From Chthonomonadales bacterium (GTDB taxonomy: Bacteria > Armatimonadota > Chthonomonadetes > Chthonomonadales > Chthonomonadaceae): a DNA stretch of 21,564 nucleotides. The notes below the pieces were generated by a model. It worked only from the letters and a program-made list of their open reading frames with translations, did not search any database and had not been told where the DNA came from. Of the stretch, positions 688-10,285 are shown in pieces. How positions within the stretch are numbered: position 1 is the stretch's first letter; each line of letters opens with the position of its first letter. The translations under genes were made by a program, and so were the position numbers. The stretch is from assembly GCA_038217285.1 (NCBI GenBank), contig JBBQPO010000077.1, positions 1 through 21,564 of the forward strand, written 5' to 3'.

Positions 688-778
688 TCAGCTCACCAAA
701 ACGGTGTCACGGTACGGGCCGAGGCTGCGCTACGGATGCTGCCGAGCAAACAAAGTTTACGCAAACGCCCTCGAAATC

Positions 779-808
779 TTGACAAATGGGGGAGATATAG
801 GCTAAAAC
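779..808 (+). promoter_or_regulatory. Putative sigma70-type promoter for glnA
   Basis: TTGACA (779-784), 18-nt spacer, TAAAAC (803-808), upstream of the structured glnA leader. Confidence 0.45.
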
Positions 809-839
809 AGCAGAACAGATTTCCCCTATAAACCCTGCT

Positions 840-914
840 TGGCAGTGACGCCACGCCGATCCTCGATTTCCCGCCGCGCAACGCGACAGGAGCATTGATT
901 CGGCGTGGCTTTTT
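840..914 (+). promoter_or_regulatory. Structured glnA 5' leader: terminator-like stem plus a competing small hairpin (candidate attenuator)
   Basis: Perfect 10-bp inverted repeat GCCACGCCGA (850-859)/TCGGCGTGGC (900-909) followed by TTTTT (910-914). The hairpin TGGC-AGTGAC-GCCA (840-853) overlaps the 5' arm. Confidence 0.55.
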
Positions 915-969
915 GTCGGGTATGGGTTTTTCTGTGACAAGCCATCAATTTTCAGGGAGAGTGATCGAC

Positions 970-3150
<2,181 letters not shown>

Positions 3151-3157
3151 CCCCACT

Positions 3158-3250
3158 GGCAGGCCGCACTCTCTCACAGCCTGCCCTCTCTGCAACAACC
3201 GTCGCGCCGGTCTCTTCCTCGCCATCAGGCAAAAAAGAGATCGGCGTTTC
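3158..3250. terminator. Two hairpins between the convergent glnA and glycoside hydrolase genes (probable terminators)
   Basis: GGCAGGC (3158-3164)/GCCTGCC (3179-3185), and CGCCGGTCTCTT (3205-3216)/AAGAGATCGGCG (3235-3246) followed by TTTCGTTTG. Confidence 0.6.
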
Positions 3251-3259
3251 GTTTGTAAA

Positions 3260-5875
3260 TCACTCTTTCCAAACCTCGATCTCCGTCACGCCGCTGCGCG
3301 ATTCGCCGCGATGGGTGAAGAGGACGCGAAGCTTCTGTGTCTTCACATGCGCGAAGGTCACGGTGTTGATGGCGCTGCCTGTCGGCACGGCGGGGCTTTT
3401 CACCTGACGTTCAGCGTCTCTCCACTGTCCGTCCGCGAAGTACTGAACGGTATAAGCGGCGGGAGGCTGAACGCCACCGTGATCGTCGTAGAGATAAAGC
3501 TCGACTCTGCCGACCTCTTTCCCTACGCCGAAATCGATCTCCAACCAGTCGGTGGGGCTCTTGGAGCCATAACTGGTCCAGCGGTTTACCGGAGTGGGAC
3601 GGTAGTTCACGCGACCGTCGTTCGCCCATTTCGGAAGGCCGCCATAGATGTCATGGAAAGAGGCGTCCGCCTTCGGAAAGCCTTCTCCTTTCAGGTTCAG
3701 CGCCAGGTTGCCGGGCGGGGGCGGCGTAGCGGTATAGAGTCCCTGCCCCTCTCCCCAGACCTCGATCTCGCTGAGTCCGGTCTTGCCTGCGGTGGAATGC
3801 GTGAACACGATGCGCAGTTGCTGCACATCCCTGGGAGAGAAAGCGACGGTGTTGGCGCGATGCCCGGTCGGGTTGGCAGGCGTCCGGGTCGCACCGGAGA
3901 GTGGGATCCAGCCGCTGCCGTTCCAGGTCTCCACCGCATAGCGGAGCGGAGCGGCCACTTCTGCGCCATCGTCCAGGAAGTAGAGCTTTACCTGATCGAC
4001 CCGGCGTGGAGCGCCGAGATCCAGCGTGATCCAGTCGGTCGCGTTCGGAGAGCCAACGGTGGTCCAGCGGTTGGGAGGGCTTTTGGCATACCAGATATTG
4101 CCGTCGTTGACGGCGCTGATCGGGGTGCGCGGGTCCGTGAACGAGGCGTTCAGGCGCGGATAGTAATCGCCGTCGTTGTTGACCGCGTAGTTACGGGGCG
4201 TATTCACGGGGACGCGGAGCGTTTTGAGTGCGGGAAGCTTGGTGATGATCTTACCCAGAGAGCTGCGCGAAGCGAGGGGCTTGCCGTCCGCCAAAACATG
4301 CAGACCTGCGCCGCGACGGTAGCGCGAGCCGTCGCGATCCCAGAAGATACTGAGGCGATGACCGTGGTAAGAGACGTCGTCCAGTGCGAACCAGGGCCAG
4401 TCCAAGGACGCCAGAGGATCGATTTCGAGGGTGTCGCCTGCACCCGTTTTGAGCCCGACCAACCCCGTGATGACGAGGTCGTTGAAGCTGCTGTGGAAGT
4501 AGTGCTCGCTATGGTTGTAGGAGTCGTGGCCCTCGAAGGAGCCCGTATCGGGGTTCAGAGCCTCCGCGAGGTAAGGCGTCCCGTTCTTGCGGTGAGAGAT
4601 CGCAAACGTGTGGAGCAGATTCCCGTAGTCGTCGCGCGTGACGACGTTCTGCTTGTAGTTGTGCAGCAGGTTCGCCATCGCCTTGAGTGTCTGCGCCGTG
4701 GCGTAGGGCCAGGACTGTCCGCTCCACCAGCAGCACGAGTTTTTGAGGACGAACAGCGGGTCGTGGCGCTCTACCGTCGTCGGACCATGGTCCGCCAGGA
4801 AATAGTTGGAGTCCATCAGAAACTTCCACGCCGACTCGTAGCCGGGATCCGGCAGGTTGAACTGCCACGGAACGTATCCGTACTCCTCGCGGCCATGGTC
4901 GCTGCCTGCATATTTGCCGGACTGATAGGTCAGGGTGTTCTTGAGGACCCTGTTGCCATCGGCATCGGTTTCGTCACGCATCGCCATCGGGAAGAAGAAC
5001 GCGCGTTGCGGATCCCAGAGCAACGCCTGTAGCTTCTGCTTGAGCGAAGCCGCCTTTGCGGTGTAATCCCTGGCCGTTTGCTCCTCTTCGGCGAGATGAG
5101 CGATGTTGGCGATTGCGAGGGCATCGGCATACATATAGGCGTTGAAGTCCGGGCGATAGCCGTTCGCACCGCGCAAAATGTCCTTTGTCTGGCGACTATT
5201 GATGTTGAACTCCATCCCATCGTCGTGACCGTTTTGCCAGAACAGCCCCTTCTCAGGCACAAATTGCCGCTGCTCCCAGCCTTCAAAGTTTTTCTTCAGG
5301 TCGGGCAACAGATCTTTTACGAAGGCGGTATCGGGATGGACCTCGTTGGCGGCCCAGACCGCATCGGTCAGCCAGCAGCCGTAGTTGCGCGGCTGCGAAC
5401 CGGGGGTACGAAACCAGTAGCGCGCATAGTCGCGGGCGTACCGTGGATCGCGCAGCCAGCGCACTTCGTAGAGTTGATGCCCGGCCGGGCAACTGATCGC
5501 GCCGTACGCTCCGCTCCAGAAAGGACGATCCATGAACTCGGTGAAACTGTATCCGCTGTTCGGTGAACCGTAGGTCAGATGCTTCGTTACCAACTCCCAG
5601 CGATAGTACCAGGTCGTGACGATCTCCCGATCCGGGCACTCGAAAAACGGGATATTCGCTTTGTACCAGTCCCAGTCGCGGTTGTCCCACCAGGAGTAGG
5701 CATCGAGCGCCTTCTGCTTGTCGATAATATCGGCGGATGCCCTGCTTGCGAATCCAAGCAACATCAGCAGGAGCCACACGTGCAAGACCATATGAGCAGC
5801 GCGATGTTTCCAAGACGCGACAGGGAGGACAGCACAACGTTCGTTCACACGATACAGGGCGATATGAGCAGGCAT
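3260..5875 (-). CDS. Secreted MGH1/GH63-like (alpha/alpha)6 glycoside hydrolase with two C-terminal F5/8 type C (discoidin/CBM32-like) domains
   Basis: AAGGAG RBS before ATG 5875 and a signal peptide (VWLLLMLLGFASRASA). Motifs: WYKANIPFFECPD, EVRWLRD, WQNGHDDGME, CWWSGQSWP, HSEHYFHSSF. Two repeats of NDG..NRWT..GS...DW(I/L)xxD(L/F)G...EIEVW. Confidence 0.85.
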   Translation of the reverse strand: MPAHIALYRVNERCAVLPVASWKHRAAHMVLHVWLLLMLLGFASRASADIIDKQKALDAYSWWDNRDWDWYKANIPFFECPDREIVTTWYYRWELVTKHLTYGSPNSGYSFTEFMDRPFWSGAYGAISCPAGHQLYEVRWLRDPRYARDYARYWFRTPGSQPRNYGCWLTDAVWAANEVHPDTAFVKDLLPDLKKNFEGWEQRQFVPEKGLFWQNGHDDGMEFNINSRQTKDILRGANGYRPDFNAYMYADALAIANIAHLAEEEQTARDYTAKAASLKQKLQALLWDPQRAFFFPMAMRDETDADGNRVLKNTLTYQSGKYAGSDHGREEYGYVPWQFNLPDPGYESAWKFLMDSNYFLADHGPTTVERHDPLFVLKNSCCWWSGQSWPYATAQTLKAMANLLHNYKQNVVTRDDYGNLLHTFAISHRKNGTPYLAEALNPDTGSFEGHDSYNHSEHYFHSSFNDLVITGLVGLKTGAGDTLEIDPLASLDWPWFALDDVSYHGHRLSIFWDRDGSRYRRGAGLHVLADGKPLASRSSLGKIITKLPALKTLRVPVNTPRNYAVNNDGDYYPRLNASFTDPRTPISAVNDGNIWYAKSPPNRWTTVGSPNATDWITLDLGAPRRVDQVKLYFLDDGAEVAAPLRYAVETWNGSGWIPLSGATRTPANPTGHRANTVAFSPRDVQQLRIVFTHSTAGKTGLSEIEVWGEGQGLYTATPPPPGNLALNLKGEGFPKADASFHDIYGGLPKWANDGRVNYRPTPVNRWTSYGSKSPTDWLEIDFGVGKEVGRVELYLYDDHGGVQPPAAYTVQYFADGQWRDAERQVKSPAVPTGSAINTVTFAHVKTQKLRVLFTHRGESRSGVTEIEVWKE

Positions 5876-6204
5876 AAAACGGGTCTCCTTGAAAAATAGA
5901 AAGCAGGCTCTTCCCTACGAGTAGCCTCTCTGAGGTTTCCGGGACGACAGAGCGCTCTCTTCTGACGACCGTACGCATGAAACAGCCTTCCAGAAACAGC
6001 GTCTCTATGTATGTGGTGCAAGGCCCCGGCAGAATCCTGCTGTGCAACCAATATCCAACAACTCATGACCGGTTTGCTGCAATATGCTCAAGATTGGGAC
6101 GAAAGTGTTCCTCCTGCCCAACAGTGGTTTCCTCCGGCAGCCTCTCAGACGCCGCTATATACCGTGTATAATAGACTATTCCGTGACGAGAGGAGAGAAC
6201 TAGG

Positions 6205-6477
6205 ATGCCGCACCCCTTCTATACAGGTGAGGAGATTGTTCGACGCGGTGAGGAGTTTTACGAGCAGACTATCCGCCATCAGGTGGAGACAGAGGAGAAT
6301 ATCGGCAAAATCGTCTCCATCGATATCGAAACCGGCGACTATGCCATCGATGTCGATCCCGTGGTCGCTGGTCTCCAGGTACAGTCCAGACATCCGCAAG
6401 CAGCCATTTATGGTAAACGCATTGGATATGATGCCGCATTTGCTTTAGGCGGCACACTTACGAGGACGCCACGTTGA
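6205..6477 (+). CDS. Small hypothetical protein of the type found upstream of clan AA aspartic proteases (DUF5678-like)
   Basis: GAGGAG RBS near 6188-6193. 90 aa with EEIVRRGEEFYEQ.IR..VE...GKIVSIDIETGDY...RIG. Its stop overlaps the next start (TTGA). Confidence 0.8.
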   Translation: MPHPFYTGEEIVRRGEEFYEQTIRHQVETEENIGKIVSIDIETGDYAIDVDPVVAGLQVQSRHPQAAIYGKRIGYDAAFALGGTLTRTPR

Positions 6478-6839
6478 CGAATGGCATCGTACTGGATATG
6501 CAAGCATGTGTGAATGTCATGTTTCGACTGCCAAACCGAACTGATATTTCCATTGAATTCGTTGTCGATACCGGTTTTGCCGGTGCATTGGTACTACCGA
6601 CAGCAGTAACTGCGATGCTGGGCTTGCCTTATCTACAAGAGATGATAGCGAATCTGGCCAACGATGACGCTATAAAGGCGGATGTTCATGTAGCGACAAT
6701 TGTTTGGGAAGGTCAGGAACGCCAGGTAGCGGTTTTAGCTATGGGGAAGCGACCGTTGCTTGGGACAGATCTACTGAGAGGGAAAGAACTCGTCGTTCAA
6801 TTTATTGAAAACGGTCTGGTCACTGTTGAGGATCCTTAA
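6474..6839 (+). CDS. Clan AA (retropepsin-like) aspartic protease, AF_0612-type
   Basis: 121 aa with the catalytic VVDTGF motif, an LAND flap-like segment and the C-terminal PLLGTDLL motif. The TTG start overlaps the upstream TGA. Confidence 0.9.
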   Translation: MTNGIVLDMQACVNVMFRLPNRTDISIEFVVDTGFAGALVLPTAVTAMLGLPYLQEMIANLANDDAIKADVHVATIVWEGQERQVAVLAMGKRPLLGTDLLRGKELVVQFIENGLVTVEDP

Positions 6840-6844
6840 GCGGG

Positions 6845-6863
6845 CATGGGCGAATCTCATGCT
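6845..6863 (+). terminator. Hairpin after the aspartic protease gene
   Basis: GCATGGG-CGAAT-CTCATGC (7-bp stem with one G-U pair); weak U-tract. Confidence 0.35.
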
Positions 6864-6929
6864 CTCCCAAACAGTTGCTGAGAGCCGACACTCGACATTC
6901 TTAAAATGCTACAGAAAGGGCACTGTCTG

Positions 6930-7598
6930 ATGACGAAATCAACGGATAGAATCCCGCCAGAGAAGGTAGCGTTGTACGAGAAGCTCATCGCCACCAACCC
7001 GAATATCGAGTGCAAAGGCGAGGAGATTCCCTATACCTCTGTAAACGGCCATATGTTCAGTTTTCTCTCCAGGGCGGGCGTCATGGGTCTTCGTCTGCCC
7101 ACCGCGAAACGAGTAGCATTCCTGAAAAAATATGATGCGAAACTTCACGAGCAGTATGGGATCGTCCAAAAGAGTTACGTGGAGGTTCCGGACACTCTCT
7201 TCGAGAAAACCGAGGAACTCAAGCCGTTTTTCAACTGGAGTTACGCCTACGTCAACTCTCTCAAGCCGAAACCGATCATAGGATACACAACAAGAAATGG
7301 ACGGCCCCGTCAGGCGAGTGAGGAGCCGGTGCCGGAAAACTTCGCAGGAGAGGTCATTGAGCACAAAGCGGACGCATACTTTGAAGTAAGACTTGATGAC
7401 GGGCGAGTATTGCCACTCTGCTTCATTGGACGCAGAAACGTTGGTCGTGGAGTAGATCTCAGCAGGTTGATTCCGAAGGTCGGCGACCGAATTTGGGTAG
7501 AGGAAAGCCCGTACAATCCAGGGCATGCACGTATCATCATCCATAAAAAATGGCCAGCTATCAATACAGCGGAGCCGACGTCCAAAACCAAAAGATGA
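6930..7598 (+). CDS. Fusion protein: N-terminal TfoX_N-like domain plus C-terminal translation initiation factor IF-1-like S1/OB domain
   Basis: GAAAGGG RBS before ATG 6930. N-half: PYTSVNGHMFSFL...MGLRLP...YG...KSYVEVP...SYAYVNSLKPK. C-half: GEVIE....FEVRLDDGRV...GDRIWVEESPYNPGHARII, which matches the IF-1 pattern G.V.E.LPN..F.VELENG...GD.V.VE..PYD...GRI. Confidence 0.75.
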   Translation: MTKSTDRIPPEKVALYEKLIATNPNIECKGEEIPYTSVNGHMFSFLSRAGVMGLRLPTAKRVAFLKKYDAKLHEQYGIVQKSYVEVPDTLFEKTEELKPFFNWSYAYVNSLKPKPIIGYTTRNGRPRQASEEPVPENFAGEVIEHKADAYFEVRLDDGRVLPLCFIGRRNVGRGVDLSRLIPKVGDRIWVEESPYNPGHARIIIHKKWPAINTAEPTSKTKR

Positions 7599-7736
7599 CC
7601 GTTCGGCGCAGGGAAGAGATCTATGAGCGCGAACTGCGCTCCCATCTCGAACCCGCCCCGAACGATCTCTGTACGCGAAAGTGCTGATGTAGCTATTGCG
7701 TTTCCTCCGTGTATAAACGCAGAAGGATGAGAATCG

Positions 7737-8102
7737 TTATTTGGGGGTGAAGGAGGTGCCGCAACCGCAACTGCGCTGGGCGTTGGGGTTGGAGAACTTC
7801 CAGCCGCCTTCGAGCAGGTTTTTGGTGGTGTAGTCGAGTTCCATGCCTTCGAGAAAGCGGGCGCTTTTGCGATCTACGAGGACGGTCAGCCCGCCGATTT
7901 CGAGGATGTGGTCGCGTTCCGTCGGCATCTCTTCGAGGCCCAGTGAATAGGAGAGGCCGGAACAGCCTCCGCCCTTGACGCCGAGACGCAACGAGAGGTT
8001 CGGTTTGCCCTGCTTCGCCATCAAAAAGTTGACGCGCACAATGGCGGCGGGCGTCAGCGTGATCGTTGGGTCGGCGTTTTCGGTCAGTGTCGTATCGCTC
8101 AT
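7737..8102 (-). CDS. sufA: A-type Fe-S carrier (HesB/IscA/SufA family)
   Basis: LRLGVKGGGCSGLSY and FSNPNAQRSCGCGTSF motifs; GGAGGG RBS. Confidence 0.93.
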   Translation of the reverse strand: MSDTTLTENADPTITLTPAAIVRVNFLMAKQGKPNLSLRLGVKGGGCSGLSYSLGLEEMPTERDHILEIGGLTVLVDRKSARFLEGMELDYTTKNLLEGGWKFSNPNAQRSCGCGTSFTPK

Positions 8103-8206
8103 CTCATTTCCCTCCAGCAGCCTCTCAGCCGCCGCGCATTACCTATTGGCAGCCAACAAAACCTTCGCTGCTCTGTGCGAAGCTGCCAGGCGCTCACAAA
8201 TAGAAG

Positions 8207-8539
8207 TCAGAGCAGGCCGAGTTCGAGTTTCGCGCCATCGGACATCATGTCCATCGTCCAGGTCGGGTCCCAGACCACTTCCACTTCCACATCGGTCGCG
8301 CCGGATTCTGCACGCGCTTTCGACTCGACCTCGCCCGGCAGCGTGCCCGCGACCGGGCAACCCGGCGAGGTGAGCGTCATGCGGATGTTGGCCGAGCCGT
8401 CCGTGTCCACATCCACCTCGTAGATGAGGCCGAGCTCGTAGATGCTGACCGGGATTTCCGGGTCGTACACGGTCTTCATGGCCTCGATGATCTCGTTCTT
8501 GATGATCTCGGTTTCGATCGGTGTCAATTCCACGGTCAT
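8207..8539 (-). CDS. sufT: SUF system Fe-S assembly protein SufT (DUF59)
   Basis: VYDPEIPVSIYELGLIY, MTLTSPGCPVAG and VWDPTWT motifs; start overlaps the sufE stop. Confidence 0.92.
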   Translation of the reverse strand: MTVELTPIETEIIKNEIIEAMKTVYDPEIPVSIYELGLIYEVDVDTDGSANIRMTLTSPGCPVAGTLPGEVESKARAESGATDVEVEVVWDPTWTMDMMSDGAKLELGLL

Positions 8540-9003
8540 TATGTTGCCTCCAGGGGGCGGGCAGAGTCGGTCTGAAGCGCGAGCGCCAGGCGCTTGATCC
8601 GCTGAATCATTTCGTAGAGCCCGTTGCGTCGGTTCATGCTCAGGTGTTGGTCCAACTCCAGGCGATGCAGCAAGCCCTCGATATCGAACTGTAAGATCCG
8701 ATCCGCCGTCTGCCCGTAGAAGACGCGGCGCAGGATGGAGATCAGCCCTTTCACGATATCGGAGTCGCTGTCCGCCACGAACTCCACGACATCGCCTTCT
8801 GGGGCGGAGCGCTTCTCGGCCACGACCCAGACGCGACTCTGGCAGCCGTGAATACGGTTCTCCTCGGTCTTCTCGGATTCCGGCAAGGCAGGCAGTTTGC
8901 GCCCCAGATCGATCAGGAAGCGATACTTGTCTTCCCAGTCGTCGAACATCTCGAACGCCTCAATTAGGTCGTCTGCCTGTTGCTGTTGTGTCTCTGTCAT
9001 CAT
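8539..9003 (-). CDS. sufE: Cysteine desulfuration protein SufE
   Basis: DDWEDKYRFLIDLGRKL, IHGCQSRVW, ADSDSDIVKGL and LSMNRRNGL motifs. Confidence 0.93.
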   Translation of the reverse strand: MMTETQQQQADDLIEAFEMFDDWEDKYRFLIDLGRKLPALPESEKTEENRIHGCQSRVWVVAEKRSAPEGDVVEFVADSDSDIVKGLISILRRVFYGQTADRILQFDIEGLLHRLELDQHLSMNRRNGLYEMIQRIKRLALALQTDSARPLEAT

Positions 9004-9013
9004 TTCTCTTGTG

Positions 9014-10285
<1,272 letters not shown>

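Follow-up and report, generated by a model that had tools for sequence, protein, structure and literature searches.

The 21,564-nt stretch of Chthonomonadales bacterium DNA analysed here (contig JBBQPO010000077.1 of assembly GCA_038217285.1; hereafter the window) encodes a 222-residue protein in which a TfoX_N-type domain is joined to a divergent domain related to translation initiation factor IF-1. We hold this two-module anatomy with high confidence. The pairing is a new architecture assembled from known domain kinds, and the gene is a genuine lineage-specific fusion whose product is not the cell's initiation factor. We establish its anatomy, homology and folds, the extra-copy status of its IF-1-like part, its rarity and the reality of its junction. 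An earlier note on this DNA had proposed that the two domains share a single frame, and the frame is indeed open from 6930 to 7598 on the forward strand, with both halves recognised. The gene has the following features.

6930..7598, forward strand: whole open reading frame (ORF), 222 codons plus a stop (7596-7598), continuously open.
6906, forward strand: alternative upstream ATG of the fusion ORF, which would give a product of 230 amino acids (aa).
6878..6907, forward strand: weak sigma-70-like promoter match directly 5' of the start codon (3 sites found against 1.9 expected).
6930..7274, forward strand: TfoX_N-type (double-wing-like) domain, residues 1-115, terminating in SLKPKP; recognised from homologs, a sub-threshold Pfam TfoX_N match and fold.
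7275..7340, forward strand: flexible linker, residues 116-137, with a predicted local distance difference test score (pLDDT) below 50 at residues 118-133.
7320..7331, forward strand: Shine-Dalgarno-like GAGGAG (7320-7325), 3 nt before an in-frame GTG (7329-7331), read from the sequence at the domain boundary.
7341..7547, forward strand: IF-1-like OB-fold domain, residues 138-206; recognised from sequence matches, a five-strand barrel and rare standalone relatives.
7548..7595, forward strand: C-terminal tail, residues 207-222, short, basic (net charge +3) and of low confidence in the model.

The ATG at 6930 lines up with the N-termini of TfoX_N homologs in the alignment. Scans with the single sequence return two weak, non-overlapping family matches, TfoX_N at residues 38-105 and IF-1 at residues 138-204. 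At E <= 10 the Pfam scan of the fusion protein finds only TfoX_N and eIF-1a, and no TfoX C-terminal domain. The full-length AlphaFold model has a mean pLDDT of 84.5. The fusion protein has no match in a PADLOC scan, and an ESM Atlas search with the whole protein yielded nothing usable. A link to phages was considered and set aside: the sole match in PHROGs, phrog_30201, is plain IF-1 and carries no phage signal, since the host infA itself scores 90 bits there.

The C-terminal half (C-half) aligns along the whole length of IF-1 with a central insertion, as the earlier note had read it. It covers positions 7-67 of 69 in TIGR00008 (E 3e-4, 20.7 bits, range 18.1-20.7; cut-off 61.15) and residues 9-71 of 72 in the IF-1 structure 2n3s from the Protein Data Bank (PDB; E 1.8e-4), relative to which 4 and 2 residues are inserted in its central segment. 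Against PF01176 it scores 17.4-20 bits, below the cut-off of 30.2. Although the single-sequence matches of both halves are sub-threshold, a profile built from the C-half and nine relatives matches 12 distinct PDB IF-1 sequences over their full length at E 2.6e-10 to 2.2e-6. The predicted structure points the same way. The AlphaFold model of the C-half has a core pLDDT above 90 and forms a five-strand barrel (strands at its residues 21-29, 34-39, 44-50, 71-76 and 83-87) in which a short helical turn follows strand 3. Foldseek gives 28 matches at E <= 0.001, every one of them IF-1, eIF1A or aIF1A, and superposition on bacterial IF-1 (3i4o, 4ql5, 2n3s, 9fco, 1hr0) gives target-normalised template modelling (TM) scores of 0.74-0.82 with root-mean-square deviations of 2.0-3.1 Å. 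Judged from the sequence matches and the model together, the homology to IF-1 is solid and well past chance.

The C-half shares with bacterial IF-1 (infA; TIGR00008, PF01176) an OB barrel of the order beta1-beta2-beta3-short helix-beta4-beta5, an alignment of its 69-residue domain over the full length of IF-1, and the GxV.E, F.V.L..G and SPY....GRI motifs. It differs in forming the C-terminal third of a 222-aa protein, whereas IF-1 is a standalone factor of ~72 aa, in scoring below the family cut-offs, and in a 30S-contacting beta3-beta4 loop that is remodelled by insertions. By its sequence scores the C-half is not a member of the infA equivalog. Nor is it a canonical IF-1, because those scores lie far under the cut-offs and the beta3-beta4 loop is inserted and variable.

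A canonical infA is present on another contig of the same genome (G000:C45:17067-17282, 104-106 bits). The earlier note had described the domain as an accessory, non-housekeeping IF-1 paralog. The accessory status stands, given the canonical gene (104 bits) on contig C45; descent as a diverged copy of the host's own IF-1 does not, at 21% identity. Two small proteins from elsewhere, P0121 and P0122, are 48-53% identical to the C-half, which was therefore not produced by duplication of the resident infA.

A word-based homolog search with the C-half alone returned no match. When 1.84 billion representatives were scanned exhaustively with HMMER, 14 proteins came up at E <= 0.001, about 11 of them convincing; the other three resemble low-complexity or repeat matches and were set aside. 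Nine relatives are standalone proteins of 81-102 aa (P0121-P0124, P0126, P0127, P0130, P0131 and P0133; E 6e-18 to 1.9e-4), with phmmer similarity spanning about residues 20-90 of the C-half. P0128 (347 aa) carries the IF-1-like module at its C-terminus behind an unrelated 250-aa region, and P0132 (183 aa) has two IF-1-like OB domains in tandem. In the ESM Atlas, the N-terminal domain of P0128 retrieves only 'hypothetical' clusters, with DUF6946 in 18% of the members of lower-ranked ones. The family motifs GEVIE, VRLDDGR, an invariant Cys, PKVGxRVWVE and SPYxPGxGRI are all present in the C-half, and the invariant columns are G, L, D, G, C and G. None of 11 family members reaches the TIGR00008 cut-off (17-43 bits or no match), whereas the host infA scores 105.6 bits. 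Some sources label these proteins 'translation initiation factor IF-1' or 'hypothetical protein'.

The coexistence with a housekeeping gene is seen elsewhere, since a Polyangiales metagenome-assembled genome (MAG) that encodes the relative P0135 has a canonical infA (113 bits) alongside its IF-1-like paralog (23 bits). The family is rare. A family profile finds a member in one of 400 other genomes of the window's phylum (G391, a standalone 99-aa ORF at 68.9 bits) and in none of 300 other genomes of the order of the Polyangiales MAG. Six further matches in the phylum scan (46-47 bits) look like ordinary IF-1. With the full fusion protein as query, neither half is found in four genomes of the same genus. 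Queries A4, P0121 and A7 retrieve no family locus from genome_contigs, metagenome_contigs or viral_contigs, and the P0135 query retrieves one true locus, L005. A second P0135 match, L006, overlaps a long opposite-strand ORF and is spurious. Compared with the fusion protein, the members of this unnamed family (P0121-P0133, P0135 and the G391 locus L176) have 28-53% identity to the C-half and its motifs, yet apart from P0128 (another N-terminal domain) and P0132 (tandem copy) they stand alone, and none is joined to TfoX_N. By sequence, the C-half is thus a complete member of a family of small IF-1-like proteins that predates the fusion and is rare and patchy in its distribution.

The N-terminal half (N-half) belongs to a far more abundant group. 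In a collection of 5.8 billion protein clusters the N-half has 428 relatives, 122-389 aa long. The 119 that were listed are 55-70% identical to it over residues 1-115 and each cover only about half of the query; 96 of them carry a precomputed PF04993 match. Several hundred relatives are standalone TfoX_N proteins of 122-160 aa, which stop a few residues beyond a conserved SLKPKP motif, and the N-half is a complete member of this widespread family, whose usual size is about 120 aa. The best non-self score of the fusion protein in this collection is 164 bits against 508 for itself, so the collection holds no full-length relative. Pfam TfoX_N matches the N-half alone below threshold (E 5e-4, 20.5 bits, range 18.5-20.5; cut-off 30.1). 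We also collected 80 genomic TfoX_N loci from Acidobacteriota, Planctomycetota, Bacteroidota, Chloroflexota, Verrucomicrobiota and others, and delimited the ORF in 79. The tails beyond KPKP are 0-39 residues long, with a median of 7. Even the 25 longest tails are short and mostly rich in Lys/Arg, so none of the 79 has a further globular C-terminal domain. The earlier note's impression of small TfoX_N-like proteins ending near KPKP is thereby borne out. Standalone TfoX_N (PF04993) proteins share with the fusion protein residues 1-115, the fold, and the KPKP with its basic tail; they end 0-39 residues past KPKP, whereas the fusion protein runs on into an OB domain.

Modelled structure supports the same assignment. 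The N-domain has a pLDDT above 90, and its residues 10-109 align with 2od0_B at Z 9.3 (97 of 102 residues; Foldseek TM 0.59, target-normalised). This structure, 2OD0 (VP1028), we take to be a TfoX_N domain. Further matches are the DR2400/DUF419 structure 2a1v_A (Z 9.1), the YjbR-type structures 2kfp (Z 8.1) and 2fki (Z 7.8), a YdhG-like protein (Z 7.2), and the T4 MotA C-terminal domain with double-stranded DNA (5jlt, Z 5.9). The YjbR/DUF419 and T4 MotA folds are thus structural matches at Z 5.9-9.1, although their sequence identity to the N-domain is merely 7-13%. The fold class is presumably the 'double-wing' DNA-binding motif, and the modelled N-domain may accordingly bind DNA. The IF-1-like part is tethered, as had been proposed, to a TfoX_N-type domain whose fold agrees with TfoX_N/YjbR 'double-wing' structures. 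TfoX/Sxy competence regulators have this N-terminal domain family in common with the fusion protein; unlike them, it has no detected TfoX C-terminal domain and no tie to competence. In those parts of the literature on TfoX_N (PF04993) that were accessible, no account of the function of the standalone domain was found.

Two of the 80 TfoX_N loci, both from Bryobacterales, have an ordinary infA-type gene that is convergent with TfoX_N and ~300 bp downstream of it (L066:3130-3411 and L069:3141-3371, both on the reverse strand; the L066 copy scores 99.6 bits). The arrangement is probably coincidental, and the two loci probably go back to one shared ancestral context.

The protein-cluster, HMMER and 80-locus searches found no other protein with TfoX_N plus IF-1-like architecture. 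No paper joining TfoX with IF-1 was found in literature searches that fell short of subscription journals and bioRxiv supplements, and those on IF-1 paralogs and IF1-like bacterial proteins turned up nothing relevant to such a fusion. The earlier note knew of no description of this architecture, and our search for full-length homologs likewise found no second example.

A unique architecture in a fragmented genome (459 contigs) could reflect an assembly or sequencing artefact, namely a chimeric join, a missed stop or a frameshift. However, contigs from three studies cross the boundary without indels or joints. Contig X1, from a run that may be the source sample, spans window 6400-7554 with 0 differences. 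X2, from another study, is a contig of 166 nt that covers 7255-7420; it differs by six substitutions and shows no indel. X5, from a third study, covers 7164-7314 and carries the two X2 substitutions at 7299 and 7309; because they share this variant haplotype, the X2 and X5 records are independent of the window's assembly. A fourth record covers 7353-7589 with no differences. The X2 variant remains in frame (A21A, G124R, R127L, E132E, V142V, I143K) and contains no stop. This evidence consists of assembled contigs of depth 2-7, not raw reads. Since contigs from other studies cross the boundary with substitutions alone and an open frame, a chimera or missed stop is very unlikely, and we regard an artefact of any of these kinds as having next to no probability. 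In agreement with the earlier note's reading of a continuous gene, the contigs of other sequencing studies show neither a stop nor an indel at the junction.

The linker suggests how the fusion may have arisen. Its start, IIGYTTRNGRPRQ, resembles the basic tail of standalone TfoX_N homologs (for example P0101, KPKPTKGPTTKKPGKKRQ), and the boundary stretch ASEEPVPENFAGEVIE is similar to the leader at the N-terminus of P0122 (NSEEQPKEQYQQGEVIE). Two neighbouring cistrons, TfoX_N followed by an IF-1-like gene, would have fused by read-through on loss of a stop codon. We consider this lost stop between adjacent cistrons the probable route, and the basic tail of the TfoX_N module may now act as the flexible linker. 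The GAGGAG and in-frame GTG at the boundary may be left over from a once separate cistron or may serve as an internal start, from which (GTG 7329) the OB domain may also be translated separately. The GAGGAG is weak evidence because it recurs elsewhere in the ORF as Glu-Glu codons.

Such a fusion might be recent and neutral: a stop was lost between two small accessory genes, and the domains work as before or the gene decays. The singleton architecture would fit this, as would the complete tail of the upstream family, the nearly complete leader of the downstream family, the GAGGAG with its GTG at the boundary and the disordered linker. On the other hand, both domains are intact and confidently folded in the model, the fused frame is preserved in a diverged variant from other studies, and an unfused pair of TfoX_N and IF-1-like genes was found nowhere among the 80 TfoX_N loci. 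We consider a neutral fusion unlikely.

The possible function turns on the loop through which IF-1 reaches the ribosome. In PMC10913371, IF-1 is described as binding the 30S A site mainly via three elements. One is the beta3-beta4 loop, which includes a short helix: its Lys39 and Met42 touch the 530 loop, and its Arg41 and Arg46 touch the flipped A1492/A1493. The beta1-beta2 loop sits in the minor groove of h44, and His35, Tyr60, Arg64 and Arg66 face S12 (PMC10913371). The beta3-beta4 loop is described there as highly conserved in true IF-1s (PMC10913371). In the C-half, compared with 2n3s, Lys39 is replaced by Arg, Arg41 by Asn and Met42 by Val, Arg46 is kept, and 4+2 residues are inserted. 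This loop is also the least conserved and most length-variable segment of the family, with majority residues in only 1-4 of 10 sequences, against 7-10 of 10 for the strands and the SPY..GRI motif. Because the loop is inserted, altered and variable, we judge canonical A-site occupation less likely than generic binding of single-stranded nucleic acid.

We therefore lean, at somewhat less than even probability, towards an accessory nucleic-acid-binding protein of the RNA-chaperone or adaptor type rather than a canonical occupant of the 30S A site. Its OB barrel would be the part that binds single-stranded RNA or DNA, and a second contact to nucleic acid would come from the double-wing domain together with the basic, disordered linker.

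Several points weigh against this proposal. Some 30S-contact positions are retained (the Tyr60 and Arg66 equivalents, Lys39 as Arg, and Arg46), and within the OB superfamily the closest matches of the C-half are specifically IF-1; given this likeness and these positions, A-site binding keeps some probability. No RNA run is listed among the sequencing runs that match the locus. The fusion is a singleton from one species-level lineage, from which selection for the fused state is not demonstrable, and the X2 variant, with 3 synonymous and 3 non-synonymous changes, is uninformative on selection. Beside standalone TfoX_N genes no recurrent partner gene was seen in 150 flanking ORFs from 75 loci (150 of the 157 picked; 7 from the last loci were left out). 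The 80 TfoX_N loci include no family-type IF-1-like ORF, so that the presumed ancestral gene pair was not observed.

The first two of these points would suit a ribosome-targeting regulator, an idea raised in the earlier note: the IF-1-like domain would sit in the 30S A site as IF-1 does, with TfoX_N modulating initiation as an effector or sensor. Among all OB folds, the C-half is matched best, in sequence and in structure, by IF-1, eIF1A and aIF1A; the conserved SPY..GRI supplies the equivalents of Tyr60 and Arg66, which face S12 (PMC10913371); and basic residues of the fusion protein align with Lys39 and Arg46. The main 30S contact, however, is the beta3-beta4 helix-loop, which has the 4+2 insertions, Arg41 changed to Asn and Met42 to Val. 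Across the family no other part is less conserved or varies more in length, and the scores lie far under the infA cut-off. A ribosome-targeting role is in our view improbable, to about the same degree as a neutral fusion, and binding of nucleic acid in an accessory capacity remains our preferred reading.

The genomic contexts of two relatives bear on a further proposal. On the 4.3-kb Polyangiales MAG contig (L005:1280-3362), single genes, among them the IF-1-like gene at 1489-1752, are set apart by four ~100-nt repeat copies. Three of the four repeats, of 91-94 nt, have RYYYAAC...GTTRRRY termini that pair when folded, which we take to be the attC signature of integrons. L005 looks like an attC-like, integron-type cassette array, known from this 4.3-kb contig without a visible integrase. 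In G391, which belongs to the same family as the window organism, the standalone 99-aa IF-1-like gene lies directly downstream of ankyrin-repeat and SUKH-4 immunity-type genes (L176:89-1776). No attC-like sites are found in the window or in L176. Two contexts are a small sample, but they suggest that the IF-1-like module is mobile and accessory.

The module could thus be a component of a conflict system (immunity or defence) that protects or mimics the decoding centre or directs a partner to nucleic acid. The G391 member adjoins SUKH-4 immunity-type and ankyrin-repeat genes, the Polyangiales member lies between attC-like repeats of a cassette array, P0128 joins the module to another uncharacterised 250-aa domain, and the distribution is very sporadic (one of 400 other genomes of the phylum and none of 300 other genomes of the Polyangiales MAG's order). 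Set against these are the restriction to two contexts, the lack of a PADLOC match, a window without attC-like sites, and no toxin gene identified near the fusion gene. We find such a role doubtful. Doubtful to a greater degree is the more specific idea that the IF-1-like family consists of mobile decoding-centre binders, carried on integron-type cassettes or immunity islands, that occupy or shield the 30S A site near A1492/A1493. Were it true, these binders could guard the decoding centre from toxins or antibiotics that target it, or switch translation under stress, and the window's copy would be a decoding-centre module tethered to a double-wing nucleic-acid-binding domain.

The fusion gene lies in a stretch of low guanine-plus-cytosine (GC) content between conserved flanks. 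The setting includes the following features.

5780..7695, no strand: low-GC stretch holding the gene, GC 0.47-0.55 (across 6000-7700) against about 0.53-0.68 in the flanks.
3260-5875, reverse strand: MGH1-like glycoside hydrolase, 871 aa, carrying two F5/8 type C (galactose-binding-like) domains; a signal-like hydrophobic stretch is predicted at its N-terminus.
6205-6839, forward strand: 90-aa ORF without a family match and, with a 4-nt overlap, a 121-aa retropepsin-like aspartyl protease (PF13975, E 1.6e-6; weak PADLOC PEPT_D match).
Within the 7696-9500 region, reverse strand: Fe-S assembly genes (IscA-type, DUF59-type, SufE, SufS) that follow the fusion gene.

In a DNA comparison with four genomes of the same genus, window 4500-5779 (glycoside hydrolase) and 7696-9500 (suf genes) match. 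The intervening 5780-7695 is unmatched in all four, save for short matches to 6205-6665 on other contigs. The low-GC stretch was probably acquired horizontally. DNA like 6205-6665 occurs on several other contigs of the same-genus genomes G002 and G004, so the gene pair at 6205-6839 looks repeated or mobile. In another genome of the genus, G003 (L011), the sequence upstream of the glycoside-hydrolase gene matches window 735-1951 in place of the island and the suf genes (window 735-5779 compared), which puts the island at a synteny breakpoint within the genus. In SufS the window shares 67-71% identity with MAGs that carry the labels Armatimonadales or Capsulimonadaceae, so that the organism is probably, on this weak evidence, a member of Armatimonadota.

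IF-1 is commonly regarded as a single-copy, single-domain and universally conserved factor. The fusion protein leads to a distinct, rare and patchy family of IF-1-derived OB-fold proteins that coexists with housekeeping infA. Its biological weight is modest, because the fusion is confined to one lineage and its reading rests on sequence and models. The IF-1-like module is recombinable, joined to TfoX_N here and to a 250-aa domain (P0128) or a tandem copy (P0132) elsewhere, and gives a handle for asking what IF-1-like folds do outside canonical initiation. For the abundant standalone TfoX_N proteins, the fusion may offer a first functional hint, association with nucleic acid.

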